From NCBI GenBank assembly GCA_014323925.1, contig JACONC010000005.1:16117-80116 (forward strand): a stretch of 64,000 nt of DNA, given 5' to 3'. The notes beneath the pieces were generated by a model. The model ran no database searches, was not told the DNA's origin, and saw only the letters and a program-made list of their open reading frames with translations. Origin of the DNA: Chromatiales bacterium. GTDB lineage: Bacteria > Pseudomonadota > Gammaproteobacteria > Poriferisulfidales > Oxydemutatoraceae. Each line of letters opens with the position of its first letter. The first letter of the stretch is position 1. A program made the translations under genes and the position numbers. Positions 7,350 through 35,028 of this stretch are shown one piece after another.

Positions 7350-7358
7350 CGTAATATT

Positions 7359-8827: not shown

Positions 8828-8986
8828 GGTACTAAACAGTCTATCTGAAGAAATGAAAAGACAATGGCATACAAGTAATTATCAAACTTTATATTACCAT
8901 TTATATTATACATAACTGCGCTAGCATCACAGTTGCCTGTGCATTATCCTCACCATAATTGATTTGGTAGAATAAGCGCCAAACTA

Positions 8987-9877: not shown

Positions 9878-9905
9878 TCTATAGCACTCTCCTTGCGAAC
9901 AAAAA

Positions 9906-18118: not shown

Positions 18119-19207
18119 ATGGCCGATGCTAAACATATCTTATTACTGCCTGGCGACGGCATAGGTCCCGAAGTAATTGCCGAGGCCGTTAAACTCATCA
18201 AGTGTCTGCAAAGCGAAGGGCTAAACATTGCGTATAGCGAAGGATTAATCGGTGGCACAGCCTACGATGCCTGCGGCAAACCATTGCCCGACGAGACTTT
18301 GGCGGCAGCGCGGTCGTCTGATGCGATATTGATGGGCGCGGTGGGCGCCCCCCAATACGAGAAATTGCCACGCGAGGCACGCCCGGAGCAGGGGTTGTTG
18401 GCAATACGCAAAGAGCTAGGCCTGTTCGCTAATTTGAGGCCGGCGATGTTGTTTAAGCCGCTGGCAACCCGTTCTAGCTTGCGCACTGACCTGATAGAAG
18501 GGCTGGATATTTTGATAGTGCGAGAATTGACTGGCGGCATCTATTTCGGTGAACCGCGCGGCAAACATTATAACGAAGACCATCTACACGAGGCATACAA
18601 CACGATGGTCTACAATGAGGATGAGATAATGCGCATTGCGCGTATGGCATACCAAGCGGCGGCGATGCGCGGTAAGCGGTTGTGCTCAGTTGACAAAGCA
18701 AATGTATTGGAAGTGTCTGAGTTGTGGCGAGAGGTCGTCGAAAGTTTAAGATCCGACTATTCCGATGTTGAACTGACCCACCTTTATGTAGACAATGCAG
18801 CGATGCAGTTGGTGCGTGAACCCAAGCAGTTTGATGTAATTGTCACCTCTAATCTATTCGGCGACATACTATCCGATTTGGCAGCGATGCTAACCGGTTC
18901 AATAGGCATGCTACCGTCGGCTTCTCTAGACAGTTCAAATAAAGGTTTGTACGAACCGGTGCACGGTTCCGCACCCGATATAGCTGGGCGCGGATGTGCC
19001 AATCCACTGGCAGCGATTTTGTCGCTTGCTATGCTACTACGCTATTCTCTGGAGATGTCCGACCCAGCAGACCGCATAGAACAAGCAGTCGCCCAAGCAC
19101 TAGAAACCCATCGCACACCAGACATCGCCGCCGGCAGCAACGCAGTATCCACCGCCGAGATGGGCGATGCTGTCGTACGCTATTACAACCAAGCTGTAGC
19201 GGGCTAA
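18119..19207 (+). CDS. leuB: 3-isopropylmalate dehydrogenase
   Basis: [12 protein letters not shown]-terminus and the NLFGDILSD decarboxylating-dehydrogenase signature; 362 aa. Confidence 0.95.
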
Positions 19208-19243
19208 TGTTTGGGCAAAGCTGTCAAACTATCTGATGCCCCA

Positions 19244-19951
19244 ATGAGAACGCTTGCTATTGGTGATATACACGGCACGCACAAGGCAATGCTACAGTGC
19301 TTTGACAGGTCTCAGTTTGATTATGAGGAGGATCAACTGATTGTGTTGGGCGATGTTTGTGATGGTTATCCGCAAGTCAAGCAATGCATAGATGAGTTAT
19401 TAAAAATTAAGCATTGTCGTTTGGTCATCGGTAATCACGATATATGGGCATTGGACTGGGCGCTGAAAGGTGAGATGCCTGAAATATGGACTCGCCAAGG
19501 CGGTGCGCGAACCATCGCTTCGTATGATGGCGAACCTATGCCGAAAGCGCATATTGAGTTTTTAAGAGGCGGAGAACTTTGGATTGAACGCAACAAGCAA
19601 TTCTTTGTGCACGGTGGCTTCAAGCCTGATGTGCCGCTTAACAAGCATACTGCAAAAATGTTTATTTGGGATAGAACGCTTATTGATACGGCATGGGAAA
19701 AACATACCACCAACACCGCATGCCAATTAGGCAAGTATAAAGATATATTTATCGGTCATACGACAACCGAACACTTTGAAACATTAGAACCGCTAAATGT
19801 ATGCAACATCTGGGATTTAGATACCGGTGCCGGCTGGAGCGGCAAACTGACCCTTATGGATGTTGACACAAAAGAATACTGGCAGTCCGATTTAACACAG
19901 GATTTATATGGCGGATTACCCAATCAACTGGCAGCACAATGGAGTGCTTAA
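19244..19951 (+). CDS. metallophosphoesterase, Ser/Thr protein phosphatase PrpA/ApaH-like
   Basis: LAIGDIHG...GDVCDGYPQ...GNHD motifs of the calcineurin-like phosphoesterase family. The track ORF starts at a TTG (19211) only 4 nt after leuB; I chose the internal ATG at 19244. Confidence 0.7.
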   Translation: MRTLAIGDIHGTHKAMLQCFDRSQFDYEEDQLIVLGDVCDGYPQVKQCIDELLKIKHCRLVIGNHDIWALDWALKGEMPEIWTRQGGARTIASYDGEPMPKAHIEFLRGGELWIERNKQFFVHGGFKPDVPLNKHTAKMFIWDRTLIDTAWEKHTTNTACQLGKYKDIFIGHTTTEHFETLEPLNVCNIWDLDTGAGWSGKLTLMDVDTKEYWQSDLTQDLYGGLPNQLAAQWSA

Positions 19952-20004
19952 CATAGCGACTATATGATGTACTATGATACTTTCATAAAATAGTAGGCAT
20001 AAAA

Positions 20005-20052
20005 TTAGTGGAGAAAAAATTAGTGGAGAAAAAATTGACAGAGAAAAAATTA
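20005..20052. repeat. three imperfect 15-bp tandem repeats (TTAGTGGAGAAAAAA x2, TTGACAGAGAAAAAA)
   Basis: Read directly in the sequence. They lie at the 5' end of the ORF track's call for the TlpA-like gene (encoding EKKL-VEKKL-TEKKL), probably upstream of the real start at 20098. Confidence 0.6.
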
Positions 20053-20640
20053 ACGAAGCGGTTCTATGCAGCGGCACGCACACTGCTCTCTAGTTGGATG
20101 AAGGCAGTCACCTTTTGCTTGTGCGTGGCAATTATATTTATCGGCACGATGCCGCCCTCGACCTCCATCACCTTATCCGACCATCCCAAAACATTACCGC
20201 CATTTCATACCCAAGAAGCGATTGACTGGCTCAATTCTCCGCCGCTACAAGTGGAAGACCTAAAAGGCAAAGTGGTACTCATTGATTTTTGGACTTACAG
20301 CTGTTGGAATTGCTATCGCTCTTTCCCGTGGCTAAACACTATGGAAGCCCGCTTCAAAGACGAGGATTTTATCGTCATTGGTGTGCACACCCCTGAGTTT
20401 GACCACGAACGAGACCGCAGTAAAGTAGCCGAAAAAATCAAAGAATTCGGATTACATCACCCCGTTGTCATAGACAACGATCACCGCTACTGGCAAGCCA
20501 TGCGCAACCGCTACTGGCCGGCATTCTATGTGGTAGATAAACAAGGAAACATCCGCCACCACTATGTTGGCGAAACCCACGAAGGCAGCCAACGCGCCCG
20601 CATCATAGAACAGGCGATAAGCCAACTGCTCGCCGAGTAA
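20008..20640 (+). CDS. TlpA-like thiol:disulfide oxidoreductase (thioredoxin-fold redoxin), membrane-anchored
   Basis: WTYSCWNCYRSFP is a CxxC redox motif in a TlpA/ResA-like context, preceded by an N-terminal TM helix. The probable real start is the ATG at 20098 (MKAVTF). Confidence 0.6.
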   Translation: MEKKLVEKKLTEKKLTKRFYAAARTLLSSWMKAVTFCLCVAIIFIGTMPPSTSITLSDHPKTLPPFHTQEAIDWLNSPPLQVEDLKGKVVLIDFWTYSCWNCYRSFPWLNTMEARFKDEDFIVIGVHTPEFDHERDRSKVAEKIKEFGLHHPVVIDNDHRYWQAMRNRYWPAFYVVDKQGNIRHHYVGETHEGSQRARIIEQAISQLLAE

Positions 20641-20688
20641 GTGCATAATATCAAAACCCCAGAGCCTTATAAATCTATAGGCACCCCA

Positions 20689-20728
20689 CCAAATTAAGTG
20701 TGCAAATTAAGTATGCAAATTAAGTGTG
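20689..20728. repeat. three 13-bp tandem repeats (CAAATTAAGTGTG / CAAATTAAGTATG / CAAATTAAGTGTG)
   Basis: Read directly. They sit in the intergenic stretch at the left edge of the defence island. Confidence 0.6.
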
Positions 20729-20810
20729 TGCCACCAAGATATTCGCATTAGAGCAGTGCGCCGACATAATGCATATTTGATAAGGTGCTGAAAAAACGAC
20801 CTTAACTCTG

Positions 20811-21263
20811 TTAAGCAGTCTGGTCTAGCCTATATGTGCTGATAGATGTTCTGCTTCTAATAGCCTTTATTTGCCTAGTTCTTCTTTTGGGTGGCGTGCT
20901 GTAGACATTCCACTTTGGAACTACCAATAGAGAAAAACCTAATTGTCGTAATTTCAGTTCCACTGACTCTTTAATTGTAGTCTTACCATTTTCCATAGAC
21001 TTCAGCGTTCTTTCAGCTATTTCCAGCTCCTTTGCCAATTCTTTAGGGGTATAGCCCATCTCAGTCCTCAAAAATCTTATCTCATCTCCATTGATAGATT
21101 TGGACTCTAGAATGTCCTTAGCAATTAACCAGTGTAAAGCATGTATATTAGGAATTGTTATCACCTTCTCGCCATCGTCATCAGCAAAATGCAACCCATC
21201 AATATACACATTTTTTAGCCCACACTCAGTGTAATGGTATCTTTCTTTACTCTCTGCTTTCAT
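20811..21263 (-). CDS. XRE-family HTH protein, putative antitoxin of a type II TA pair
   Basis: 150 aa with a central HTH (TPKELAKELEIAERTLKSMENGK). Its start overlaps the stop of the upstream toxin-like gene by 17 nt, in a toxin-first arrangement like HigBA/MqsRA. Confidence 0.5.
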   Translation of the reverse strand: MKAESKERYHYTECGLKNVYIDGLHFADDDGEKVITIPNIHALHWLIAKDILESKSINGDEIRFLRTEMGYTPKELAKELEIAERTLKSMENGKTTIKESVELKLRQLGFSLLVVPKWNVYSTPPKRRTRQIKAIRSRTSISTYRLDQTA

Positions 21264-21582
21264 TTTCCCACATCACGGTTACTAGTTTAACAGCACAACG
21301 CTCTAAGCTGGGTATAATTACGATGCATATTCTTTTACCTCCAGAGTTAGGTGTGTAACCAGCAATTTTATACTTGTATAAGCCCTCATCAGATCTAGTG
21401 GTTTCATCAAGGCTTATCAGTTCAAATTTGTGTCTGAGGAGATACAGTATATCAGACATGATAATACCACGCTCGATTAAACGTTGCTTAGCATGTCTAG
21501 TCCACGTAATCCGCTCTATTCCGTTATTTCTTTGCAGAAAATCAAATAATTTTTTTTCATTTAAGGGTTTATGAGAGTACAT
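21247..21582 (-). CDS. DUF4258-family putative toxin (RelE/ParE-superfamily-like)
   Basis: The 111-aa protein has a TRHAKQRLIERGI motif that I remember as diagnostic of DUF4258 toxins. It is translationally coupled to the downstream HTH gene. Confidence 0.5.
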   Translation of the reverse strand: MYSHKPLNEKKLFDFLQRNNGIERITWTRHAKQRLIERGIIMSDILYLLRHKFELISLDETTRSDEGLYKYKIAGYTPNSGGKRICIVIIPSLERCAVKLVTVMWENESRE

Positions 21583-21668
21583 ATTATGTTGAGGGAAATA
21601 ATTCTAACAAAGTCTTAATCATGCTATCAAAATTGTATTATCAACATCGGTTCTATCTGCCACTGCTC

Positions 21669-22382
21669 TTAAGACAGTGCCATTTCTAGTTTGTGTTTGC
21701 GGGTGAGCCAGTCGGGCATGGTTCTGTCCAGCAGGCGGTAGAATTCGTTGCTGTGATTGTGGTGTTTGAGGTGGCAGAGTTCGTGGACGATAACATATTC
21801 TATACATTCTTTGGGGGTTTTGATTAAGTCGGTGTTGAGTGTGAGTTGTCCTCTGGGAGAGAGGCTGCCCCATCTTGTTTTAAGCCATTGGATTCTGAGT
21901 TTGGGTTTTATGTGTGTCGCTTGGTCAAAGTTATTCCAGCAGTTGTCTACCATCTTGGTTAAATAGACGAAGGCGTGGCGTTGATACCATGTTGTCATCA
22001 ATTTGCGTATGTAGGTTGGGTCGGACCTGATGCATTGTATATAGAAATAGCCGCTCTTTAACAGCACTTGGTCTCTGCTTGCGAGGGAAATTTTGAGGCG
22101 GTATTTTCTGCCCAAATAGAGATGACTTTCACCGCCGACATATTGTCGCGGTGGTGTTCTTGGTTCAAAGCGGTTGAAGTATGCGATTTGTTTAGTAATC
22201 CAGCGTACCCGTTTGGCAACGCGCGCACGGATAGTATCTATAGAGTAGACCGCAGGTGCTTTAACGACCACTCGCTTATCAGGATGTACCGCTATCTCCA
22301 GCGACTTTCGGTCCATTAGCAATAGTTCGTAGTTGATAACGGTTTCGCCGTAGTGTATCGTGCAAGCGATGGGCTGGGTCAT
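21669..22382 (-). CDS. M48/DUF45 (YgjP-like) zinc metallopeptidase associated with Type I R-M
   Basis: HELCHLKHHNH HExxH zinc motif; 237 aa. Its start overlaps the hsdR stop by 4 nt, which is the classic hsdR-linked DUF45 gene. Confidence 0.7.
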   Translation of the reverse strand: MTQPIACTIHYGETVINYELLLMDRKSLEIAVHPDKRVVVKAPAVYSIDTIRARVAKRVRWITKQIAYFNRFEPRTPPRQYVGGESHLYLGRKYRLKISLASRDQVLLKSGYFYIQCIRSDPTYIRKLMTTWYQRHAFVYLTKMVDNCWNNFDQATHIKPKLRIQWLKTRWGSLSPRGQLTLNTDLIKTPKECIEYVIVHELCHLKHHNHSNEFYRLLDRTMPDWLTRKHKLEMALS

Positions 22383-25300
22383 GTGCTGCGTCTGCTTTCA
22401 GCGATTTTCATGACTCGGCTGATAATATCAACCACCTGTTCCCCTGGTAGCGATATGTTAAATCTTGCTTTGACATCATCGGATAGGTAGTCGTCTATAT
22501 CGCTTTTGATAGAATTACAGGCATCAAAATTGCGCCAAAAATCCACTATAGTATTCTCGTTCAAAATCTTTTGAATGTACAAAGCGGTTTCTGATGCTGC
22601 CTGTTCGGCAAGTTTGTCGTCAGCCAGCCCCTTAAAATGAGATTGCATCACGCCGAAGTAAGCGCAAGCCTCGCGGTTTTCACGTATCGCTTCAGGGACA
22701 TCGTCGCGGGTGTTGGAACTCACCTGATTGCGAACATCCATTGCGATTTTCAAATAGGCTGTGTCTATGATTCTCCCTTGCCTAAAATCGTCTATTGCTT
22801 GTTGAATCAACTTTGAGAACTTTTCATAAAAGGTGGGGTCTTGGTTCTTAAATTTCTCTTTAAGGGTCTTTTTCGTTGCGTGTGCAATGGCATCGGCTCT
22901 AGCTGCGGTTGACCTCACCGACTGATCGTGGATAGGGTTATCCTTCATCACCGCATTGACCGACCGCTCGTCCATTATGTCAATTGGTTCGCTTATTTGT
23001 ATCACTTCCCTGTCCGCGTGTATATGCCTATCCAGAAGTTTCTCTATTCTATTTTCATAAACACCAAAGTCTATTTTTTCGGCGTAGCGCAACTGAACGG
23101 ACTTGCGCAGTTTCATAAAATGCTTAAGGTCACCTCTATAACGGTCTAATTCCTGCTCATCAATCTCGGATAAAAACTTATCGCTAGATAGGGCAATGGC
23201 GAGAGTTTTGCTATATTCGGTCAGACACTCGTAAAAATCGTCGCGTTTATTTTGATCAGCAAGCAGTCTCTCAAATGCTTCGTTATCATTTTTGTTTGTT
23301 ATTTCTTTGAAAATATCCCACAAAGCGGCATGCGCTACCGGCAACTTATCTATTTCTTCTCTGATAGAAATCAGTGCCTTGGCAATATCCTCCTCGTCAA
23401 AGTCCTTAAAAGCATCATACATTATTAATGCTTTATCCAGTTCCGCCAATACTCTATCGTAGTCAACGATATAGCCATGGTCTTTGCCTTCATAGATGCG
23501 ATTGACGCGAGCGATGGCTTGTAGCAAGCTATGTTCTCTTAAGTTCTTGCATAAATAAAGCACCGTGTTCCTAGGTGCATCAAAACCGGTTAAGAGTTTA
23601 TCCACCACGATGATAATTTCCGGTTCTCTCTCGTATTTGAATTGGTCAATAATTTGCTTTTCGTATTCCTGAGGCGTGCCGTACTGATTCATCATTCTTC
23701 TCCAAAATCTGACGACTTCAGCGGTTGAGTCATCATCTATTTTTTGATGACCCTCGCGCGTATCTGGCGACGAGATAACCACTTCCGAACTAACACATCC
23801 TATATCCTCTAATGCGTGGTGATATCTAATGGCTGTGAGCTTGTCGGGTGCGACCAGCTGGGCTTTGAACTCAGTGTCCTGCCAGTTTTCCCTAAAATGC
23901 ATACTAATATCCCACGCACGCGCATAGATCACTTGCTCCGTTTTATTGAGCATCCGCGCACGCGCATATTTTCTCTTCAAATCGGCTTTCTGTTCATCCG
24001 ATAGATCATCGGTGTGCCTCTCAAACCACAAGTCAATGTCCGCTTGGTCTTGTTTTATTCCAACATGCCTGGCTTCGTATAGTAGCGACACAATAGTTTT
24101 ATCTTTCACTGCTTGTTCAATGGGATAACTTGGTTCTATCAAGCGGCCGAATTTGCGAAAACTGTCTTTGTCTTTTTTCATCAGCGGAGTGCCGGTGAAA
24201 CCAATATAACACGCATTAGGTAGCATCTTCCTCATTTTCGCAGCAAAGAAGGCAAAGTTTGTGCGATGGCTTTCATCCACCAACACAAACAGATTGGTAT
24301 CGTCGTCAACATAATCCTGTGCCTTTAATGCCGTATTAAATTTATGTATGACGGTGGTAATAATCGGTGTTTTTGCTTTGAGAAGGGTCGTTAAATTTTT
24401 ACCCGTAGTTGCTCGTGTTCTTTCCAGACCACATTGCTTAAATGTATTTCCCAGCTGCTCATCCAAATCGGTCCTGTCGGTGACCAGTAAAATCCGCGGA
24501 TTGCTAATTTCTGTATCTGATATCAATGCTCTCACCATCATCACCATAGTCAACGACTTGCCTGAGCCTTGTGTGTGCCATACGATGCCGCCTTCACGAC
24601 GGTTGCCATCGTATTGCTTGACTCGCTTTAAGGCATTGTGCACCACGAAAAATTGCTGATAGCGGGCAATTTTTTTAGCACCGTGTTCAAAGATAGTAAA
24701 ACGATAGGTCAGGTCTAGAAGCCGCTCAGGTCGGCATAAACTATAAATCGCCTTGTCCTGTTCAGTGAGTTGCCTGCCACCCTGGGCGTCTATCTCGTCA
24801 AAGTGTTGACGACACTGTGCAAACTCATCAGTAAACAAAACCTCCTTTTGTGCGGCAGACAAAGGTTGATTGACCAACGCTTGGATATCGTCATCTTTGT
24901 CTTCGAGCTCTTGCCATACACTCCAAAATTTTTCCGAAGTACCGGCGGTTGCATATTCCGCCTCATTTTTATTGACCGCTAAAACAAGTTGCGCATAAGC
25001 AAATAGATTGGGAATATAATCCGTACCTTGATTGCGGATATGTTGAGAAATCGCTTCCTCTACTTCAACCTCAGGCGATTTACACTCAATTACACACAAA
25101 GGAATACCGTTGATAAACAGCACAATATCAGGTCTTGCATGCGCATTTGAATGTGCACGCTCAACCGCAAACTCAGGCAACGCATGAAACACATTGTTGG
25201 TTATATCCTTCCAGTCAATGTAGTTTAAGTCAAAACTTCGCGTATTATTCTCCACCGTCTGCGTCAAAGATACCGGCAATGTAATGTAGTCATAAATAGC

Positions 25301-25579
25301 TTCCTGTGTTTTACCTCGCCCGTCACGCCGCACACCCTTAAATTTCTGCACAGCCTCTTGAATGTTCGCCTCCGAGAACAGATACTCTCGCCCCTGATAG
25401 TGGATACGATTAATCTTGTGCAGCTGTTCAGTTAAGATACTCTCCAATAACACATTGCCCGTACTGCCGCCACGCACCGCCAACGCCGCAGCAGGCGGCA
25501 ACACCTGATAACCCAGTTTCGCCAACAACTGCAACGCCGGAATCTGCGACGATCGCAACTCATCAATTTTTAACGACAT
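22379..25579 (-). CDS. hsdR: Type I restriction enzyme R subunit
   Basis: 1066 aa with an N-terminal nuclease region, a Walker A (HTQGSGKS), the DEAH-like VLVDESHR box, SF2 helicase motifs, and the C-terminal helical domain typical of HsdR. Confidence 0.9.
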   Translation of the reverse strand: MSLKIDELRSSQIPALQLLAKLGYQVLPPAAALAVRGGSTGNVLLESILTEQLHKINRIHYQGREYLFSEANIQEAVQKFKGVRRDGRGKTQEAIYDYITLPVSLTQTVENNTRSFDLNYIDWKDITNNVFHALPEFAVERAHSNAHARPDIVLFINGIPLCVIECKSPEVEVEEAISQHIRNQGTDYIPNLFAYAQLVLAVNKNEAEYATAGTSEKFWSVWQELEDKDDDIQALVNQPLSAAQKEVLFTDEFAQCRQHFDEIDAQGGRQLTEQDKAIYSLCRPERLLDLTYRFTIFEHGAKKIARYQQFFVVHNALKRVKQYDGNRREGGIVWHTQGSGKSLTMVMMVRALISDTEISNPRILLVTDRTDLDEQLGNTFKQCGLERTRATTGKNLTTLLKAKTPIITTVIHKFNTALKAQDYVDDDTNLFVLVDESHRTNFAFFAAKMRKMLPNACYIGFTGTPLMKKDKDSFRKFGRLIEPSYPIEQAVKDKTIVSLLYEARHVGIKQDQADIDLWFERHTDDLSDEQKADLKRKYARARMLNKTEQVIYARAWDISMHFRENWQDTEFKAQLVAPDKLTAIRYHHALEDIGCVSSEVVISSPDTREGHQKIDDDSTAEVVRFWRRMMNQYGTPQEYEKQIIDQFKYEREPEIIIVVDKLLTGFDAPRNTVLYLCKNLREHSLLQAIARVNRIYEGKDHGYIVDYDRVLAELDKALIMYDAFKDFDEEDIAKALISIREEIDKLPVAHAALWDIFKEITNKNDNEAFERLLADQNKRDDFYECLTEYSKTLAIALSSDKFLSEIDEQELDRYRGDLKHFMKLRKSVQLRYAEKIDFGVYENRIEKLLDRHIHADREVIQISEPIDIMDERSVNAVMKDNPIHDQSVRSTAARADAIAHATKKTLKEKFKNQDPTFYEKFSKLIQQAIDDFRQGRIIDTAYLKIAMDVRNQVSSNTRDDVPEAIRENREACAYFGVMQSHFKGLADDKLAEQAASETALYIQKILNENTIVDFWRNFDACNSIKSDIDDYLSDDVKARFNISLPGEQVVDIISRVMKIAESRRST

Positions 25580-25748
25580 AACATAACCCTATACTGATAC
25601 TGAACAACTATAATCAAAACCTTTGATAACCCCATACTACTGTGTGCCATAGTCGTCCGTAACCAGTGCCATTGCCTCCTTCAGTAACTTTCTCTGCGAG
25701 ACTGGTCCCCCCTTTTAGTATTAACTAATGCGGTTATCATCGTATAGT

Positions 25749-28001
25749 TCAGGATTTCTTTCTCATATATTTTTCATAATGTTCTTTATAGCCAGTTTCT
25801 ATAAAAACTTGCCTAAATGCTTCTCTAAATACGTCAGTATCTATTTCTCTATTATCGCAAATATTCGTAGCATCAGAGTGTGCTTCTCTATTCATGTATC
25901 GGCAAAATGCTCCGTATTTTTTTGAATCCATAGATTCCAGTATTTTGTGTAGTTTCTTTTTCTCACAGAGGAAGAACGCGAAAAAATACTCAAGTATGTT
26001 CCTCATACTAATCGCCAATAAGGCACTGGTTACTTTTTCTGAAGAATCTTTAATTATCTGCCAATATGATTGGTATTCATTTTGTATGTCATTTTCGTCT
26101 ATGGGTTCAATGAGGGATCCTTGCTTACCTTTTATAACTCTAAAATAGTCTATTGCATTGCTTTCGTTTATCTTTAGTTCATGGAAAAAATATAAACTGT
26201 GAGTCAATATAAATAATTGGTAGTTCTTTCCATCAGTGTTGTTCTTTCTATAAAATTTTTCCTTGATAAGCATAGCTACATTGTATATATGTATGTGAGA
26301 TAAGCTGGATATAGGGTCATCAATAACAATTATTTTATTTTTATCTACCTCATCTGGTTTCTCCCTTCCTAGACATAATTCTATAAAATAAAGAAAGCTA
26401 ATTATCATTTTTTCACCCTCGCTTAAAGTCTTAAAAGCATTTTTATTTTGTCCGTTTCGGACAACCCTGTAATGTTCTTTTTTTTGTTCATGTTTCTCAA
26501 TCTTGAAACCTTCCATGTTGAGTTCACGGAGCCTATTGTTTATACTAAAAATAGCATCTTCTATATTCAATGTATAGCGCTGTGCCTCCTGAATAATTTC
26601 ATTCTGCTTGCCAACTTCCTTTTTTGATTCCTTTATACTGGCTTCCGTTTTCCCTATCTTATTCTTTATCTCGCCTGTATCTTCTTGGTATCTGGTTATC
26701 GTTTGATCATAGTCGCAGCGCATTATTTGCCAAAATATATTCTTAATATCTTCTTTAGTTTGCGCTATGTTCTGAATTTGTAGATTATGCTTATCTATAT
26801 CTTGATTTATTAGGTTTATCGCTTGGTTTAATTTCTCTATATTTCCCTGGGTGCTTTGTAATTCCATCCTTTGGCTTGGGGTATTAATTTTATTTTCAAT
26901 TTTTTGTAAATTGGCGTCTATTTTTCTTAATAGATTTGCATGTAGGCTATTAAAATCAGTTTTATTTGTAGCATCTTTTTGTATATAGGTATTGTCATCA
27001 AACTCTCCTTTGAGGCTGTTAGCTCTATTTTTACTTTCGTTGTATCGTTCTCTTAATTGCCTTAAGTTTTTTAGTTGTTGTTCATAAGTCTCATCAAAAT
27101 AATTCTTTATCTCGTTGGCTAATTCTTTACTGATAGTTTTCTCCTGACAAAAAGGACATTGCTCATTTTCTGTTATATCGTCAGGTTCATTTATATAACA
27201 GACACCCTGACGCACCCAATCGGAATTATTTAACTGTGTAATTAATTCTTTTATCTGGCTATCTTGGTTACCTGTAATAGGTTCTTGAAAAATAGTATTT
27301 CTTTCAATAGCTGCGAAGTCTTTTGGTTCCATGCTATTGAGTGGCTTAATAGTTTGCCCATCTTGCAATGCCTGAGCTTCCTTTTCAAGGTCTTCTACAG
27401 TTTTACTAGGTTTTGTTTCAGGTTTAGAGATATTTATAATATGCTTAAATAGTTTTTTCTTATCTCCTTTAAAGCCTGCTACACAAAAATCTAAAGGCCT
27501 ATCTTTTCCAGAATAATTCGTAATTATCTCCCAGATTTTGTCACGAGCTGCTACCTTAAAATTAGCTTCTTCGGTTTCTAAATCTTTCTTTAGAGCTTCT
27601 TGATTACTCAAACGTTTTTGAAGTTCTTCCTTTTCCTTTTTAGCTTTTTCAATTTCTTTTTCAGCTGCTTTATTTTGTGAAGACAAAGTAAAAATACCCT
27701 TTTGTGATCCTTCTATGCTTTGAAAAATATCTTCAATAAAATTTTGGTTATAGACTAATATCTTTTCTCCATCCTCAAAACCTTCTATAGAGCAGTCACC
27801 ATAATCTATATCAGGTGGGTTTTTACTTTCATCTCTATTATTTGCTTCATACCTAAGATAATCAGATAAGATCGACTTTCCAGTACCATTAAGTCCATAA
27901 AAAAGGTTAATATCCTTGTTTGTTTTTATAGGTTCAGGGTTCTCATCCTTATAAGTTGCTACATTTTTCAGTGTGATTTTTTTAATCATATTAGCCTCCA
28001 T
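25749..28001 (-). CDS. AAA ATPase with coiled-coil and CxxC zinc-hook insert; RloC/PrrC-like anticodon nuclease candidate
   Basis: 750 aa. Walker A (GLNGTGKS) at the N-terminus, a long Lys/Glu-rich coiled coil, a central CPFC motif (QCPFCQEK), and a distal ABC-type signature-like region (DDPISSLS, FILTHS). It lies between hsdS (16-nt overlap) and hsdR, the canonical prrC/rloC position. Confidence 0.55.
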   Translation of the reverse strand: MEANMIKKITLKNVATYKDENPEPIKTNKDINLFYGLNGTGKSILSDYLRYEANNRDESKNPPDIDYGDCSIEGFEDGEKILVYNQNFIEDIFQSIEGSQKGIFTLSSQNKAAEKEIEKAKKEKEELQKRLSNQEALKKDLETEEANFKVAARDKIWEIITNYSGKDRPLDFCVAGFKGDKKKLFKHIINISKPETKPSKTVEDLEKEAQALQDGQTIKPLNSMEPKDFAAIERNTIFQEPITGNQDSQIKELITQLNNSDWVRQGVCYINEPDDITENEQCPFCQEKTISKELANEIKNYFDETYEQQLKNLRQLRERYNESKNRANSLKGEFDDNTYIQKDATNKTDFNSLHANLLRKIDANLQKIENKINTPSQRMELQSTQGNIEKLNQAINLINQDIDKHNLQIQNIAQTKEDIKNIFWQIMRCDYDQTITRYQEDTGEIKNKIGKTEASIKESKKEVGKQNEIIQEAQRYTLNIEDAIFSINNRLRELNMEGFKIEKHEQKKEHYRVVRNGQNKNAFKTLSEGEKMIISFLYFIELCLGREKPDEVDKNKIIVIDDPISSLSHIHIYNVAMLIKEKFYRKNNTDGKNYQLFILTHSLYFFHELKINESNAIDYFRVIKGKQGSLIEPIDENDIQNEYQSYWQIIKDSSEKVTSALLAISMRNILEYFFAFFLCEKKKLHKILESMDSKKYGAFCRYMNREAHSDATNICDNREIDTDVFREAFRQVFIETGYKEHYEKYMRKKS

Positions 28002-29089
28002 TTGGCGGTGAGTAGTTTTTGCATTAAGCCGCGTTTTTGTATGCGGTATCGTTCTGTTAATTGTTTCAGTAAAGTAATTTCTTGTTGGGCGGTATTGAGA
28101 ATTTGAGTAATGGCTTTTTGCTTTTTGATATCGGGCAAGGCAATCGGAATAATACTCAAACTATCAAAGCTGACTGTTTTCCTGACGCTGCCTTGTTCGC
28201 TATTTTTAATTCGCTGCTTGGCTTCGTCGGATGATAGCCAATATAAAAAGTAATCATTCTCAATTTTCTCTGGGTTCAATTTGAAAACTGTATACATCGG
28301 GCTTATTATTCCGTTATGCCAATTATCTAACCTGGCTATTGAACCGACATTAATACGGGCTGGATTGTATGCATATTGACTGCGTTTAACAATTTTGTAG
28401 TTAGAAACATTGCTACTAGCAACTCGTCTTTCAAATTGTTCTTCAGGTAGCACAAAACCACTATGATTAGTAACGCTTAGGACACGGTCTAGCTGATTAT
28501 CTTTGTTGCGTATTGATACTTCCTCAATAAAGTTTAGTAAACGGGTCATTTTATGATCGGATTTGTTGATTAGAGAATTTACCAACCACTCAAACTGTTT
28601 TTTTTTTGCGGCGATTAGGGCTTCGGTTTTTTCAATCGCTGTGTCCCATGTTTCTAATAGAGAGGCGATGGCTTTTTGTTCGGCGAGAGGGGGTATTTTT
28701 ATATCTTGTGCGTACGCAATATTTCTATTCAAACCAGGCACCGCAGAATCTGAATTTAAACTATTTAACCCAAGATTCTTGAGCAAATAGTAAAGAAAAT
28801 GTAAATCACATTTTGTGTTTCGTTCTGAGATATAAAAAGTAGTATCAATAGGGAAAAATGATATGTCACTCTTATAAACGGAGCCTGCTGTTCCTTTTCT
28901 ACCAATAATGATTCCCGGCTCTTTTACTAATGGTTCATTATGCTTTCCAATTAATCCAGCAGAACTAAACACTGGTACATCACCTAAAATCCTCCTCTGC
29001 TTTGGCAATGATTGGCCATAATTAAAAACTGCCACTTCACCCAGTCTCATTTCTTGCCATCCTTTTGGTAATATTTGTTTTTTCATCAT
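27986..29089 (-). CDS. hsdS: Type I restriction-modification specificity subunit
   Basis: 367 aa with two target-recognition-domain halves and conserved repeats (PPLAEQKAIASLLE, LPDIKKQKAITQIL). It is downstream of hsdM. Confidence 0.8.
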   Translation of the reverse strand: MMKKQILPKGWQEMRLGEVAVFNYGQSLPKQRRILGDVPVFSSAGLIGKHNEPLVKEPGIIIGRKGTAGSVYKSDISFFPIDTTFYISERNTKCDLHFLYYLLKNLGLNSLNSDSAVPGLNRNIAYAQDIKIPPLAEQKAIASLLETWDTAIEKTEALIAAKKKQFEWLVNSLINKSDHKMTRLLNFIEEVSIRNKDNQLDRVLSVTNHSGFVLPEEQFERRVASSNVSNYKIVKRSQYAYNPARINVGSIARLDNWHNGIISPMYTVFKLNPEKIENDYFLYWLSSDEAKQRIKNSEQGSVRKTVSFDSLSIIPIALPDIKKQKAITQILNTAQQEITLLKQLTERYRIQKRGLMQKLLTAKWRLI

Positions 29090-29131
29090 CTCTCACCAAT
29101 CTGTAAATACATCACCTGTACATGCGCAGAT

Positions 29132-30646
29132 TCATCTATCAATCCCTTTCAGTAGTTCTCTCATCTTTGTTCGCACTGCACTCAGTTCATTTTCCATTGT
29201 GTCTATTTCATTTTGCACCGCATCAATATCTATTTCTTCCTCTTCTTCAAAGGTGTCTACATAGCGGGGGATGTTCAGGTTAAAGTCATTTTTTTTGATT
29301 GCGTCCAAGTCAGCTAGGTAGGCATATTTATCAACCTTTCGGCGGGCTTCGTAGGTTTTCAGTATCTTGTCTATGTGTGCATCCAGCAGGCTGTTTTGGT
29401 TCTTACCGGCTTGATAGTCGCGGCTGGCATCTATGAATAAGACATCTTTGCGGTGTTGATTTTTGCCGTATTTTTCCCGCGACCTATCAAAGATAAGGAT
29501 AGCAACTGGAATAGATGTGGTTGGAAAGAGATTTTTTGGCAAGCCGATAACTGCGTCCAGCAGGTTGTCTTCTATCAGTTTGGTGCGAATGCGTCCTTCA
29601 GATGCGCCGCGAAATAAAACACCGTGTGGCACAACGACTACAACTCGGCCTTTTTTCTCTGTAGCTGCTTCAATCATATGACTGATGAACGCATAATCGC
29701 CTTTTGACTTGGGTGGTATACCCCGCCAGAAGCGATTGTAGGGATCGTTCGCAGCATCTTCAGCACCCCATTTTTTCATAGAAAAAGGTGGGTTAGCAAC
29801 GATGTTGTCAAACTTCATTAGACGATTTTTATCTACCAGATTGGGATCCTTGAGAGTGTCGCACCACTCTATTCTTGCTGAGCTTTTGCTGTGCAGAAAC
29901 ATGTTCATACGACACAACGCCCAAGTGATAATGTTTGATTCCATGCCGTAGAGTGCATAGTCAGGGCTTGCGACTACCTTTGCTGCTTCAATCAGCAGTC
30001 CGCCCGACCCACAGGCCGGGTCACAGATGCGCGCACCGGCACTCGGCTTGCACAGCTTGGCAACGAGTTCGGATACTTTGTGTGGTGTGTAGAACTCTCC
30101 CGCTTTCTTGCCGGCATCTGAGGCAAAGCGTTCTATTAAATAGATATAGGTATTGCCGATGACATCTTCCGAGACCCGAGGTGGGCGCATATCCAACTGG
30201 GGTTTGTTGAAATCCTCCAGCAGTGTTTTCAGTCGCCGATTTTTATCCTTAGCCTCACCAAGATAGGTTTCGGAATTAAAGTCTATTTTGCGTAATACGC
30301 CTCCCAACTTTTCTTTGTTTTTGATCTCAATGGCACCCAATGCCTGATTGATAATATCACCGATATTTGGTTCGTTGCGCTGATTATATAAATCGTAAAA
30401 ACTTGACCCTTTGGGCAAAACACACCATTTTAGCTTTAGCTTGCGGAGAATACGCGCATCATCGTCGCCGTACTGTTGCTTATAGGCATCATAGTGGTAT
30501 TGCCATACATCGGAGATATATTTGACAAATAATATCACCAGAATATAGTCCTTGTAGTTGGCTGCGTCTACTACGCCGCGGAAAGTGTCGCAAGCCGACC
30601 ACGCCGCATTGTTGATGTCTTGCTGTTTAATAGTCGTTTGTTCCAT
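29132..30646 (-). CDS. hsdM: Type I R-M N6-adenine DNA methyltransferase subunit
   Basis: 504 aa with the HsdM N-terminal domain, the AdoMet motif DPACGSGG and the catalytic NPPF (ANPPFSMKKW). Confidence 0.9.
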   Translation of the reverse strand: MEQTTIKQQDINNAAWSACDTFRGVVDAANYKDYILVILFVKYISDVWQYHYDAYKQQYGDDDARILRKLKLKWCVLPKGSSFYDLYNQRNEPNIGDIINQALGAIEIKNKEKLGGVLRKIDFNSETYLGEAKDKNRRLKTLLEDFNKPQLDMRPPRVSEDVIGNTYIYLIERFASDAGKKAGEFYTPHKVSELVAKLCKPSAGARICDPACGSGGLLIEAAKVVASPDYALYGMESNIITWALCRMNMFLHSKSSARIEWCDTLKDPNLVDKNRLMKFDNIVANPPFSMKKWGAEDAANDPYNRFWRGIPPKSKGDYAFISHMIEAATEKKGRVVVVVPHGVLFRGASEGRIRTKLIEDNLLDAVIGLPKNLFPTTSIPVAILIFDRSREKYGKNQHRKDVLFIDASRDYQAGKNQNSLLDAHIDKILKTYEARRKVDKYAYLADLDAIKKNDFNLNIPRYVDTFEEEEEIDIDAVQNEIDTMENELSAVRTKMRELLKGIDR

Positions 30647-30975
30647 TGTTATTGCCTTATTAGTAGTTTATCTCTTATCTCTTGGTGGATGCGGGTCATT
30701 GCCGTAGCTATTTCCATCTCTGATTTTTCCGTTCTAATGTATAGTAATCGGCAATACACTTTTGCTTTTCTTGATACGGGATGATTGCTTGTAGTTTCGC
30801 CAATGTTCGTTTGCTTATCATTTTAACTACCGATCCTTCGGAACGCATGCGGAAATATGCCTGCAATACCGATCGCTGTACTCCTCAATAAGAGCAACCC
30901 TCTCTATCAGTATCATTATATATAATGTAAGAAAACTTGGATAGGTTCAAAAATTAAAACCATTGGAGGTGAACC

Positions 30976-32094
30976 ATGCAAAAAGATATGCACTTTTGGG
31001 GTACCTATGTTATCACTAGAGCGGCGGGAGTTCCGATGAACGACGCCCATACCATTGCTTATGCTGCTCAATATGTAGACGATTCCACCCAGCAAGATAG
31101 CGAACAACATGAAGACGGTGGGTTGCTCTACGGTATTGCAACTGCGCATCATGCTTTGAAAAGTGCGGCAAACAGTGTTATTGATCGCGAAGCGCAACGC
31201 CGAGTATGGGTGCCGTTTCATTTTATACCGGGTGGCATGGGCAAAACTTTAGCAGAGAAATTACTCTGCGTTAAAGATAGCGAAATCGCCCAAGAGATGA
31301 TCACGCACCATATTGCTAAGGCAAAAGAAAAAACCTTTGCACTAGAACTTATCGGCATTGCTGCCCATGTCTATATGGATACATTCTCTCACTATGGATT
31401 CTCTGGGATTAGTTCCGAATACAACGCGGTAAAGGCGGACTCTTTTAAGTTTTTTAATGTTGAATCAGGGTCGCGGATAGAAAAGTACATTAAAGGTAAA
31501 CACAGTGCCTTTGTTGAAAAGTACAAAGAACAAATAGAACAAGTGCATAATTTTTTCGCGGGGATAAAAAGTTCTGTAGCGGAAGCAGGTTCTGGTGCTT
31601 TAGGACATGCGGGCGTTGTCACCTATCCCGACCGACCTTTTTTACACTGGCAAGTTGAGTTTGAGCGTGCGCGTGCTGATAAATTATCTAATCGCAATAA
31701 TCCGCAAACCTATCTTGAAGGGTGCGAAAAATTGCACGGCTACTTAAGTGAATTTGCACGAGAGAGATACGAACAACCAGAGATTGTGCCGTTTGAAAAT
31801 ATCAAAGGCGAGGTAGAAAAGATTATCCAATTTCAAGGTGCTAAGGAAGAGCGCATAGATAAATGGAAGCAGGCGATTACTGAAAGGACCGTATATGCTC
31901 CTGAAGAGGGTGAAGCGAAAGAAACCAAATATGAAGCGAGTCTGTGGGAGGAGGAGAAAGAAGGATTTCATAATGCCACATCATCTAGCGAGGGTATTGA
32001 CACGAATGTCTACCGTTTTCATCAGGCAGCCGCCTTTCACCGCTATTATGTCTTAAAGGATCTCTTGCCCAAGCATAATATTGCTGTTTACTAG
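30976..32094 (+). CDS. hypothetical cytoplasmic His/Asp-rich protein; possible zinc-dependent PLC / S1-P1 nuclease-fold hydrolase
   Basis: 372 aa, no signal peptide. The N-terminus HFWGTYVITRAAG...AHTIAYAAQYVDD resembles the WGxxGHxxVAYxAQxYV opening of S1/P1 nucleases, and there are further His/Asp clusters (VPFHFIPG, AHVYMDTFSHYGFSG, LGHAGVV). It is divergent from hsdM. Confidence 0.35.
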   Translation: MQKDMHFWGTYVITRAAGVPMNDAHTIAYAAQYVDDSTQQDSEQHEDGGLLYGIATAHHALKSAANSVIDREAQRRVWVPFHFIPGGMGKTLAEKLLCVKDSEIAQEMITHHIAKAKEKTFALELIGIAAHVYMDTFSHYGFSGISSEYNAVKADSFKFFNVESGSRIEKYIKGKHSAFVEKYKEQIEQVHNFFAGIKSSVAEAGSGALGHAGVVTYPDRPFLHWQVEFERARADKLSNRNNPQTYLEGCEKLHGYLSEFARERYEQPEIVPFENIKGEVEKIIQFQGAKEERIDKWKQAITERTVYAPEEGEAKETKYEASLWEEEKEGFHNATSSSEGIDTNVYRFHQAAAFHRYYVLKDLLPKHNIAVY

Positions 32095-32385
32095 ACTTGC
32101 AGTCGATCGTCCACTATCGACTAAGGGCACCCTCACTTTAATCTAAACAGCACAATTTTCTGGTTAAGACAAAAAAGTAGCAGCAATATTCTTGCCAACG
32201 AATTTCTCCAATTTTTGTCCTTATGCGATAATACCTTGATTTTGTGAGGAAGCCATTGGTTGGTTTTATCTCGCAAACTGAAAAATATAAGGATGGCTGA
32301 TGGTGTAATGTGGGGATATCCGCTGGCAAGTGCTTAAGGTCTCCTTGCGCGTCGCTCAATTAACATTTACGCATTGTATATCTAG

Positions 32386-33405
32386 ATGAAAAAAGTCAAT
32401 ATAGCAGTTGTCGGTGCCACTGGGGCAGTCGGTGAGGTCATGCTTGAGGTTCTGCAGCAGCGGGATTTCCCAGTAGATGAGTTGTATCCGCTTGCGAGCA
32501 GGCGGTCGGCGGGTGGTGTTGTGCGGTTTAGGGGGCAGGATTGCGAGATTGGTCTGCTGGATGATTTTGATTTTGCGCGCACGAGTATTGCACTGTTTTC
32601 AGCAGGTGCTTCAGTGTCAGATGTTTATGCGCCGCGCGCAGCAGATGCGGGTAATGTTGTAATAGATAATACTTCGCGTTTTCGCAACGAGGCAGATATT
32701 CCGCTGGTGGTGCCAGAGGTTAATGCGCATGCGGCAGCAGATTATGCGCCGCGGCGGATTATTGCTAATCCGAATTGTTCGACGATACAGATGGTGGTGG
32801 TGTTGAAGCCGCTGCACGATTTGTTCGATATCAGCCGAGTGAATGTTGCTACTTATCAGGCGGTTTCGGGCGGCGGGCGGCGTGCACAGGATGAGATGTT
32901 GGCACAAACTCGTATGCAGTTGGATGGTGAGGTGGTGCAGACTGAAGTTTATCCGAAGCAGATTGCGTTCAATGCGTTGCCACAGATAGATTGTTTTATG
33001 GACAACGGCTATACACGGGAAGAGATGAAGATGGTTTGGGAGACGCAAAAGATTTTGGGGGATGAGCAGATTAAGGTGAATCCCACGACCGTGCGTATCC
33101 CAGTGGTGAACGGACATTCGGAAGCAATACATATAGAGTTCAAGCAACAGGTAGATGAGGTCGCCGCTCGTGAGGCATTGGAGAAAGCGCCTGGCATTAA
33201 GGTGTTGGATGAGCGTGTCGCAGGCGGGTATCCAACAGCTGTAACCGAAGCGGATCATCAGGATGCGGTTTGGGTTGGGCGTATACGTAAGGATATTTCC
33301 CATCCCAATGGGCTCAATGTATGGGTGGTGGCAGATAATTTACGCAAAGGTGCGGCGACCAACAGTGTACAAATCGCCGAGTTGATGTTGCGGGAGTATT
33401 TGTAA
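32386..33405 (+). CDS. asd: aspartate-semialdehyde dehydrogenase (short, USG-1-like type)
   Basis: NIAVVGATGAVG Rossmann motif and the active-site NPNCSTIQMVVVLKPLH. 339 aa. The leuB...asd-fimV-truA neighbourhood matches Pseudomonas. Confidence 0.85.
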   Translation: MKKVNIAVVGATGAVGEVMLEVLQQRDFPVDELYPLASRRSAGGVVRFRGQDCEIGLLDDFDFARTSIALFSAGASVSDVYAPRAADAGNVVIDNTSRFRNEADIPLVVPEVNAHAAADYAPRRIIANPNCSTIQMVVVLKPLHDLFDISRVNVATYQAVSGGGRRAQDEMLAQTRMQLDGEVVQTEVYPKQIAFNALPQIDCFMDNGYTREEMKMVWETQKILGDEQIKVNPTTVRIPVVNGHSEAIHIEFKQQVDEVAAREALEKAPGIKVLDERVAGGYPTAVTEADHQDAVWVGRIRKDISHPNGLNVWVVADNLRKGAATNSVQIAELMLREYL

Positions 33406-33669
33406 AGAGAGTTGTTGCGGTTGGTTTTCATGCTCTGATGATGATACGCAACAGCATGCGGTTATCGCGCGATGTTTAATATAGATATAGGGTTGACTAA
33501 AATTTTATGGTATGCCTCTGGTGTGCAACGGCTTATGGGGTGTGCGTATAGGTGTCTATTTAGCAGCGCTGTTAAGGTTGCTTATAAAGCAGACTGTTTA
33601 TGTTACTTTAACAAACGGCGCCTGATGAGGTCTGAAAGTGACTGCATAGGGACACCTCTATGGTTTGCA

Positions 33670-35028
33670 ATGGCACTAGGCAAGGACAATCACACTGGGT
33701 TGTCCTTGCGGTGGTCGATGTTGTGGCTGGTGTTGAGTTGTTTTGCGGTGAGTTCGGCAGTGGCGTTGGAGTTGGGCGACCTATCAGTTGACAGCGAGGT
33801 CGAGCAGATATTGGATGCCAAGGTCACGCTAGGCGATGTAGCACGCGAGAACTTAGCAAATTGGTATGTGTTACCTACGGATGAGAACGATTATCAGGCG
33901 CAAGGGCTTGAGTATCTAAAGAGTTTGCACGACCGCTTGGTGATGGAGATAGTAACATCGGCAAATCCACCTTATATTGCGGTTAGCAGTCTTGTGTCCA
34001 TCGGACTTGATAGTTTTGATTTAATCGTTCGCATCGGCGACGGCGATAAGATATTGAGTAATACTTATCGGCCAATATTAAAAGAGCCATCGGCACCGCT
34101 GCCTGAAATAATCAAAGCGATGACACCTGCTGAGATGTTGAATTATTTGGTGAATAAGCTCGCTACCGCGCAAAACATCCCTGCTGGAGAAGTATGGGGT
34201 GAGTTGCAATTATTGACGACTGCCACTGATCCGGATGGCGAATACAAGTTCATGTCGTATCTAAGTTCAGTCAATGTAGACCCGCGCTTTTTAGCTGGTG
34301 TAGAAGCAATGCTCAGCGATTATCAAAAGACTGTTTTTGATAAGGCTCGTGCTGAGTCGGGTGATGCTCGTGCAGTCGCTACGATATTATTCGCTCAGCA
34401 AGGCTTTCTGATATTAAAGGCATTATTTGGCAAAGCGACTGAGTCTTCACTAGAAGAAGGTGAGACCAGGAGCGAGCAATTAGACTTTGCCCGTGAAAAT
34501 GCGGCAATATTGCAAAACAAACTTTTTGCGCTTGAGTATGCTAAAGCGCAGCAAGATGCGGCAGCACAGCAAGGACAAGCCGATACGGCGGTTGGTCAAG
34601 ATAAAAAGTTTCGTTGGTCGGATTATCTGCAGTGGGGAGAGCAGCCGTTGATGACGAACGCTAAATTTTGGATGGTTGTGGCAATGTTCTTAGTTGTACT
34701 GCTATTGCTGGAGAGCCTATGGTTACTTAAGAAGCGAAAGGCACTGCCTATTCGGCAAGCGAGCAATGTCGGTCGTATGGGTGCACCGTTGCCGGGGCAA
34801 GAGAAATTAGCAAAACTGCGCTCTCCACGAGAGTATGTAGAGCCGCCGAATAATTTGCCCAAAGTCACAGCCGATAAGACTATTGGCAAGCTCAACCAAG
34901 CCGAAGCCTATATAGAAATGGGTGACTACGACAAAGCAAGCCGTCTACTCAAGGAAGTAGAGCGACAAAGCGAGGATGCCGAGCAACTAGCACGTCTGGG
35001 TAGCTTACGAGATAAAATGAAAAAATGA
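33670..35028 (+). CDS. FimV-like protein (C-terminal FimV domain)
   Basis: Signal peptide (MLWLVLSCFAVSSAVA), a single TM helix (FWMVVAMFLVVLLLLESLWLL) and the C-terminal LNQAEAYIEMGDYDKASRLL FimV motif. It lies between asd and truA as in Pseudomonas. The start is uncertain: the track ORF begins at 33472 and 33718 is another candidate. Confidence 0.6.
   Translation: MALGKDNHTGLSLRWSMLWLVLSCFAVSSAVALELGDLSVDSEVEQILDAKVTLGDVARENLANWYVLPTDENDYQAQGLEYLKSLHDRLVMEIVTSANPPYIAVSSLVSIGLDSFDLIVRIGDGDKILSNTYRPILKEPSAPLPEIIKAMTPAEMLNYLVNKLATAQNIPAGEVWGELQLLTTATDPDGEYKFMSYLSSVNVDPRFLAGVEAMLSDYQKTVFDKARAESGDARAVATILFAQQGFLILKALFGKATESSLEEGETRSEQLDFARENAAILQNKLFALEYAKAQQDAAAQQGQADTAVGQDKKFRWSDYLQWGEQPLMTNAKFWMVVAMFLVVLLLLESLWLLKKRKALPIRQASNVGRMGAPLPGQEKLAKLRSPREYVEPPNNLPKVTADKTIGKLNQAEAYIEMGDYDKASRLLKEVERQSEDAEQLARLGSLRDKMKK

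Follow-up and report, generated by a model that had tools for sequence, protein, structure and literature searches.

Two kinds of anticodon nuclease have been described in association with type I restriction–modification (R-M) systems. In the EcoprrI locus of Escherichia coli CT196 (prrA/hsdM–prrB/hsdS–prrC–prrD/hsdR), a gene combining an ABC ATPase with an anticodon nuclease, prrC, lies between the specificity (hsdS) and restriction (hsdR) genes. The second kind is RloC, described from Geobacillus kaustophilus and Acinetobacter baylyi and linked to R-M genes in the hsd loci of Campylobacter jejuni. By definition, an RloC protein has 658–897 amino acids (aa), the motifs of an ABC ATPase, a CxxC zinc hook borne on a coiled-coil insert, and a C-proximal Arg-x3-Glu-x36–52-His triad; only 8 of 73 rloC genes were R-M-linked (Davidov and Kaufmann, PMC2610378). 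Here, we describe a locus that places an RloC-type gene in the position of prrC. It lies in a 64,000-nucleotide stretch of contig JACONC010000005.1 (assembly GCA_014323925.1), hereafter the window, where ≈11.5–13 kb of horizontally acquired anti-phage genes separate the core genes leuB and asd. As a defence island of a familiar type, the block is genuine but unremarkable. We consider it about 85% probable that it is a composite, horizontally acquired island that accumulated by insertion at the leuB–asd junction of a single lineage, that of an uncultured sulfur-oxidising gammaproteobacterium related to Candidatus Porisulfidus.

The likeness to EcoprrI–PrrC lies in the gene order and in the expected logic, that of a latent tRNase guarding against anti-restriction. 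It differs in that the gene product is 750 aa long and carries a coiled-coil/CxxC insert of the RloC type, whereas PrrC has 341–416 aa and no insert; in addition, a ygjP gene follows hsdR, and no Stp-like trigger is known here. With RloC, the protein agrees in size, in its ABC motifs, in a zinc-hook CxxC set in long helices, and in the R-x3-E-x36-H spacing. It is ≈43–46% identical to homologs named as RloC by JGI, differs from them in an Ala before the catalytic His, and, as in C. jejuni, belongs to the R-M-linked minority of the family.

Interruption of the leuB–asd junction

The initial annotation of the window had proposed a flanking gene order of leuC–leuD–leuB and, on the other side, asd–fimV–truA. 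Pfam bears out this order, and also places dsrC among the right-flank genes. The flanks and the genes at the left border are as follows:

15856–17268: leuC (Pfam)
17268–17903: leuD (Pfam)
18119–19207: leuB (Pfam)
19211–19951, + strand: calcineurin-like metallophosphoesterase, NinI/ApaH-like, PPP family (Pfam Metallophos; weak ApaH/PrpA-like NCBIfam matches)
20008–20640, + strand: redoxin/TlpA-like protein (TlpA/ResA-like thiol-disulfide oxidoreductase), here called tlpA (Pfam)
32172–32385, + strand: upstream/promoter region of asd, conserved with the relatives L164 and L165 (alignment and blastn)
32386–33405: asd (Pfam)
33472–35028: FimV_N protein (Pfam)
35025–35804: truA (Pfam)

The comparison of the junction was anchored on asd and covered 80 loci from genomes, 80 from metagenomes and seven contigs from closer relatives (loci are numbered with the prefix L). 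The metagenome asd matches listed came from relatives at 67% identity or below and were of no use for strain-level comparison. The closest genome in the species-level collection was a Candidatus Porisulfidus metagenome-assembled genome (MAG), with an asd 84% identical to that of the window. In the 72 loci that hold both genes, asd starts 18–1532 bp after leuB ends, compared to 13,178 bp in the window. Four close relatives (L004, L167, L168 and L169; asd 82–84% identical) have the order tlpA–leuB–asd–fimV–truA, with asd directly after leuB, gaps of 34–176 bp and no island genes; two of them (L168 and L169) also share the upstream synteny dapA–bamC–…–leuC–leuD with the window. Homologs of the island genes or of the phosphatase were found in none of the compared loci except the identical contigs L001 and L002. 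The leuB–asd adjacency is thus widely conserved, and the block interrupts it. Given the difference in gap length and the presence of the island genes at this position nowhere else, the block is an insertion, as the initial annotation had suggested when it placed accessory DNA at a conserved junction. With the adjacency conserved and the junctions of the relatives empty, insertion is far more parsimonious than repeated loss.

The left border had been drawn at 20640, with leuB–phosphatase–tlpA taken as the core flank. This part of the annotation fails, because none of the relatives has the phosphatase here, and their tlpA is found between leuD and leuB. If direct succession of leuB and asd is taken as the ancestral state, lineage-specific DNA begins at 19208 rather than at 20640. 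The phosphatase gene begins 3 bp past leuB, and its product shares 35–41% aa identity with phage phosphatases. No homolog was found in L004 or L167–L169, nor at the leuB–asd position in any relative, and for this reason the gene is probably an earlier, separate piece of accessory cargo. In contrast, tlpA is a core gene (73–80% aa identity to the relatives) and yet is displaced: the relatives have leuD–tlpA–leuB–asd, while the window has leuD–leuB–phosphatase–tlpA, unlike every close relative. A tlpA deletion scar was searched for between leuD and leuB and was not found, leaving the tlpA/leuB swap unexplained by any scar. The true start of tlpA is probably the ATG near 20098; an exact-protein lookup of the product with the GTG start gave no match.

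On the right, the upstream sequence of asd is conserved with L164 and L165 from ≈32172, which sets the limit of the lineage-specific DNA just past the stop codon of the last island gene, which encodes a DUF6765 protein. An "empty site" was sought in L164–L166, where only the asd promoter region aligned. A promoter and terminator scan gave no excess over shuffled sequence, and an Rfam scan of 19–33 kb returned nothing at E 0.1 or better. A promoter-like box of leuB, TGTATAAT, is kept upstream of this gene in both gene arrangements.

The hsdM–hsdS–rloC–hsdR–ygjP cassette

The core of the island consists of five genes on the minus strand:

21669–22382, − strand: ygjP, YgjP/DUF45 zinc metallopeptidase-like protein (PF01863, 183 bits; HELCH at residue 200)
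22379–25579, − strand: hsdR, type I restriction subunit (TIGR00348, 465 bits, cutoff 285; PADLOC REase_I)
25749–28001, − strand: rloC, Rad50-like ABC ATPase (AAA_13) with a C-terminal anticodon-nuclease domain; the likely start at M5 gives 25749–27989 (Pfam, PADLOC, alignment, AlphaFold2 (AF2), Foldseek)
27986–29089, − strand: hsdS, specificity subunit with two target-recognition domains (Methylase_S in two stretches; PADLOC Specificity_I)
29132–30646, − strand: hsdM, N6-adenine methyltransferase (TIGR00497, 281 bits, cutoff 243; PADLOC MTase_I)

These genes, together with the toxin–antitoxin (TA) pair and the divergent His/Asp-rich gene described below, had been listed in the initial annotation, and Pfam, PADLOC and NCBIfam recover all of them at the same positions. 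PADLOC matched REase_I, MTase_I, Specificity_I and the candidate system PDC-S06. All three subunits of a type I R-M system, HsdR, HsdM and HsdS, are present with intact motifs. HsdR has PD-x13-ECK at 156–172, a Walker A motif (GSGKS) at 338 and an SWI2/SNF2 motor domain, HsdM has the AdoMet motif DPACGSGG at 209 and NPPF at 285, and YgjP is an HExxH protein with an intact catalytic motif.

The cassette is organized into two translationally coupled units, hsdM–hsdS–rloC and hsdR–ygjP. ATGA overlaps join the hsdS stop to the likely rloC start, and the hsdR stop to the ygjP start (4 bp). The same five genes in identical order, with the same overlaps, occur in a relative (L170, which shares a 2.7 Mb contig with L169), but ≈570 kb away from asd. 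The cassette thus travels as a unit. The aa identities between the two copies are 81% for HsdM, 33% for HsdS, 52% for RloC, 63% for HsdR and 78% for YgjP; with only 33% identity in HsdS, the specificity is expected to differ from that of the L170 copy. Nucleotide homology to L170 is confined to positions 21667–30680 of the window. The TA pair, an HsdS-like remnant and the DUF6765 gene are separate additions, making the island a mosaic.

When positions 25749–29089 of the window were compared to 8724–12253 of L170, rloC and hsdS were far more diverged than hsdM and ygjP. This divergence suggests that the specificity and guardian genes either evolve faster or have been exchanged separately. The L170 cassette (ERZ21861969 ctg21575c, 763–785 kb) itself sits inside a larger defence-like island, whose extra genes encode a GmrSD_N protein, an NgoFVII/PLD-like nuclease and three tandem DUF8245 proteins, each DUF8245 gene being preceded by a small open reading frame (ORF).

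The ATPase is RloC by every part of the published definition. It is 746–750 aa long and has the ABC motifs GLNGTGKS (G36–K42), LSEGE (526–530), DD (561–562) and H601; a CPFC zinc hook (282–285) lies in an insert that splits the Rad50-like ATPase head, and the C-proximal triad reads R667-x3-E671-x36-H708. In an alignment of 20 sequences, with homologs at 42–52% identity, the Walker A motif, CPFC, LSEGE, DD, H601 and the triad residues are invariant, and the residue before the catalytic His is Ala in the window protein and Ser in most homologs. Several of the aligned homologs are named "wobble nucleotide-excising tRNase" by JGI, and excision of the tRNA wobble nucleotide, under regulation that responds to Zn2+ and DNA, is the predicted activity. 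The AF2 model (mean predicted local distance difference test score, pLDDT, of 80) has long helices (108–163, 304–373 and 385–474) around the CxxC and an all-helical C-terminal domain; its best PDB matches by Foldseek were Rad50 (E 6.5e-7), SMC heads, Lamassu LmuB and the retron protein PtuA.

In PADLOC, the PDC-S06 model PDLC04886 matches the protein end to end (756 bits). PDC-S06 is a single-gene candidate system, whereas the window gene lies inside a type I R-M operon and is probably translated together with it. The PrrC model gave a weak match, restricted to residues 452–742 (E 1.2e-9). PrrC was considered as an identity and ruled out, since PrrC proteins have 341–416 aa, a PrrC box and an ABC domain free of interruptions, whereas the window protein has 750 aa and an insert. 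Nevertheless, rloC occupies the same slot between hsdS and hsdR as prrC does in EcoprrI. Most plasmid members of the family, and the plasmid homologs that were inspected, stand alone, consistent with the published frequency of R-M linkage. Because RloC is described as rarely R-M-linked, cassettes of the present kind are natural material for testing whether its cognate type I enzyme keeps it silent, as happens with PrrC.

By homology to these systems, HsdM2S would methylate the host's own sites, while HsdR2M2S would translocate on unmodified incoming DNA and cut it. RloC would be made together with the R-M subunits and stay latent. If restriction were neutralised, or DNA breaks arose, the Rad50-like zinc-hook ATPase may license the C-terminal nuclease, which would excise the wobble nucleotide of the tRNA and stop translation, an abortive infection response. 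YgjP may be a zinc peptidase-like accessory of HsdR, the TA pair could serve as a type II module for island stabilisation or as an extra abortive layer, and the DUF6765 protein would be separate cargo. The initial annotation had counted the DUF45 peptidase as one layer of a multi-layer immunity locus. The layers that stand are the type I R-M system and the RloC embedded in it, together with YgjP as an accessory gene and the TA pair; the peptidase is no independent layer, because its gene is coupled to hsdR in translation and moves as part of the cassette.

The ygjP gene directly follows hsdR in the window, in L170 and on a Vibrio plasmid. That plasmid, pCECT7223 of Vibrio atlanticus, has the order hsdS′–hsdM–hsdS–hsdR–ygjP, with a half-hsdS upstream of hsdM and a DUF6765 gene adjacent. 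It differs from the window in having no rloC and in the DUF6765 gene, which lies at the ygjP end, in convergent orientation, after two small conserved genes; the protein identities are 25–52%. A literature search for a link between YgjP/DUF45 and type I R-M found nothing usable, and proteolytic control of HsdR by YgjP is a guess. The hsdR-coupled YgjP peptidase and DUF6765 can be flagged as recurrent, uncharacterised companions of restriction systems. The locus does not overturn current understanding; it documents a portable hsdM–hsdS–rloC–hsdR–ygjP cassette, and provides a clean example of a defence island in a deeply conserved biosynthetic junction of an uncultured, symbiont-like sulfur oxidiser.

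Origin of the block

Three other origins were considered, the best of which is still improbable. In this alternative, the block would be a self-mobile element (an integrative island, transposon or prophage remnant) that targets leuB–asd as a dedicated hotspot. It would fit the gathering, at a single site, of four or more modules of separate derivation (phosphatase, TA pair, cassette and DUF6765), the short tandem repeat at the left edge, the unrelated genes upstream of asd in L165, and three independent contigs (L003, L164 and L166), from the same species or close relatives, that break 190–300 bp upstream of asd. These contig ends near the right border of the island may represent population heterogeneity or, equally, ordinary assembly breaks. 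Of the features expected for an integrative island, absence from the same site in related genomes was found, while integrase, att repeats and a tRNA target were not. The ORF list and Pfam gave no integrase, transposase or recombinase in 19.2–32.4 kb, direct or inverted att-like repeats at the borders occurred only as chance-level pairs, and no tRNA adjoins the block, the nearest being at 4.2 kb and 36.6 kb. Furthermore, defence genes were found at the site in 0 of the 166 other loci; the other leuB–asd gaps longer than 400 bp hold an M23 peptidase and bactofilin, a second asd paralog, SMR/GNAT genes or an outer-membrane-protein-like gene. The integration hotspot proposed in the initial annotation is therefore not supported as a general property of the leuB–asd junction, and neither the left-edge repeat nor the HsdS-like remnant is tied to an insertion mechanism.

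Less likely again is an ancestral locus, in which a common ancestor would already have carried the R-M, RloC, TA and DUF6765 genes at the leuB–asd junction and the relatives would have lost them. The missing mobility genes and att sites would agree with such an origin, as would the composition of part of the block: the G+C (GC) content of hsdR, hsdM and DUF6765 is 0.44–0.45, equal to the window mean of 0.443. On the other hand, rloC (0.32), hsdS (0.37) and the TA genes (0.37–0.38) deviate strongly, the adjacent leu and asd genes having 0.51–0.53. A comparison of GC content with the flanks, suggested along with the initial annotation, thus marks only some of the genes, and the island is only partly atypical in composition. 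Since the leuB–asd adjacency extends over Gamma- and Betaproteobacteria (72 loci, the four closest genomes among them), an ancestral locus would need many independent, precise deletions, and the presence of the same cassette elsewhere on the chromosome of a relative also argues against it.

The weakest alternative, a metagenomic assembly or binning artefact that joined foreign DNA to a core contig, might be suggested by the MAG/metagenome source and by the contrast between the flanks and a low-GC stretch (0.31–0.37) at 25.5–29 kb, but is highly unlikely, because the arrangement is identical, with core genes on both sides and an identical asd protein, on contigs of 74 kb from ENA, 33 kb from JGI and 98.5 kb from an NCBI MAG, the reading frames are intact and translationally coupled, and the low-GC core is intrinsic to the cassette, rloC having a GC content of 0.30 in the 2.7 Mb contig of L170 and 0.32 in the window (hsdM and hsdR, 0.41–0.45).

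Several points weigh against a composite island acquired by insertion and acting as proposed above. With hsdR, hsdM and DUF6765 at the window mean, composition alone leaves the block as a whole unmarked as foreign, and no mobility genes or att-like repeats account for its arrival. The assemblies that carry the island may all derive from overlapping sample data, which limits the independent confirmation of contiguity. RloC usually acts without a linked R-M system (PMC2610378), so that its silencing by the present one is suggested by analogy to PrrC only. Finally, the gene identities, the intact motifs, the insertion and the mobility of the cassette are shown, whereas all biochemical activities and the regulatory coupling are predictions from homology.

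Additional modules and minor observations

The remaining genes and features of the block are listed here:

20690–20728: tandem repeat, three copies of a 13-bp unit, CAAATTAAGTGTG, in the intergenic region between the convergent tlpA and antitoxin genes (Tandem Repeats Finder (TRF), period 13, 3.0 copies)
20811–21263, − strand: helix–turn–helix (HTH; XRE/MqsA-like) antitoxin, 150 aa (HTH_3, 26.7 bits, cutoff 23)
21247–21582, − strand: DUF4258 toxin (PF14076, 32.2 bits, cutoff 25)
≈30708–30848, − strand: HsdS-like remnant, a 46-codon frame upstream of hsdM, between hsdM and DUF6765 and outside the L170-homologous region
30976–32094, + strand: DUF6765 protein, 372 aa, cytoplasmic, rich in invariant His and Asp (Pfam PF20551)

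The toxin and antitoxin genes overlap by 17 bp, as expected for a type II TA operon. DUF4258 belongs to the BECR-fold RelE/ParE superfamily, has no known target, and is documented in fusions with MqsA (PMC11980606). The present pair resembles the DUF4258–MqsA-like modules in its toxin family and in the overlapping, downstream HTH antitoxin. It differs in the antitoxin, which falls below the cutoff for MqsA (TIGR03830, 24.9 bits, cutoff 61.8) and lacks CxxC pairs; the zinc-finger cysteines are degenerate, with only one Cys in the N-terminal region.

The DUF6765 protein may be a distant relative of the zinc-dependent phospholipase C/P1 nuclease superfamily. The corresponding Pfam family, PF00882 (Zn_dep_PLPC), matches the window protein weakly (13.6 bits, E 0.063), and weak matches were obtained for 17 of 35 DUF6765 homologs (best E 2.5e-6). 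Residues D4, H6, D35, D36, H58, H82, H131, D135, H139, H211 and D219 are invariant. The AF2 model has a pLDDT of 87, and its best PDB match by Foldseek, the Clostridium perfringens alpha-toxin, was not significant (E 0.89). No DUF6765 models are included in PADLOC or NCBIfam, no matches were found among phage genomes (INPHARED), and no mention of the family was found in the literature searched.

Defence or mobile neighbourhoods recur around DUF6765 homologs (L171–L174, L183 and L188). They include a SIR2/GmrSD/BrxC (BREX) island, a reverse transcriptase with an HTH gene and IS21, neighbourhoods with Fic and insertion sequence (IS)/transposase genes, a prophage in which the gene is moron-like cargo between the portal and terminase genes, and a Vibrio plasmid, where it lies directly beside type I R-M with a SprT/YgjP gene. 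Distant homologs in Ralstonia lie among ordinary genes. Two small conserved genes precede DUF6765 on the Vibrio and Photobacterium plasmids and are absent in the window. These contexts hint, through guilt by association, at a possible defence role. A cytoplasmic effector resembling zinc phospholipase C or P1 nuclease, from a new single-gene or small-operon family active against phages or in conflicts between elements, would be a speculative and rather doubtful assignment.

The initial annotation had noted an HsdS-motif remnant near the right edge. A remnant is plausible but weak, and its place is between hsdM and DUF6765, short of the extreme right edge. Aligned to the resident HsdS, where a target-recognition domain meets the conserved region, it scores 21.6 bits; 200 shuffles reached at most 24.6, with the 95th percentile at 19.2. 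Seven PADLOC Specificity_I models matched it weakly (E 0.002–0.014), while the Pfam scan gave no match; the half-hsdS of pCECT7223 occupies the same position.

The tandem repeats noted earlier at the left edge are recovered by TRF. A second array, 3.5 copies of the 15-bp unit AAAATTAGTGGAGAA at 20001–20052, brackets tlpA together with the 13-bp array, and the two units have a common core, AAATTA(A)GTG. The 10-mer AAATTAAGTG recurs ≈290 bp upstream of asd in the contig of the closest relative (L164, positions 10–19), a match that is not significant (E 0.17).

Outside the island, positions 40128–41477 of the window (− strand) encode a putative methyltransferase of 449 aa beside recN, in a low-GC patch (≈0.40). 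It gave weak N6_N4_Mtase and UPF0020 matches and a faint match to the anti-phage DUF1156; a partner restriction gene was not noticed. In L166, either tandem amplification or an assembly artefact has left four to five tandem Aminotran_3 gene fragments of nearly equal length (≈270 aa each; positions 5213–10071) downstream of asd–fimV–truA.

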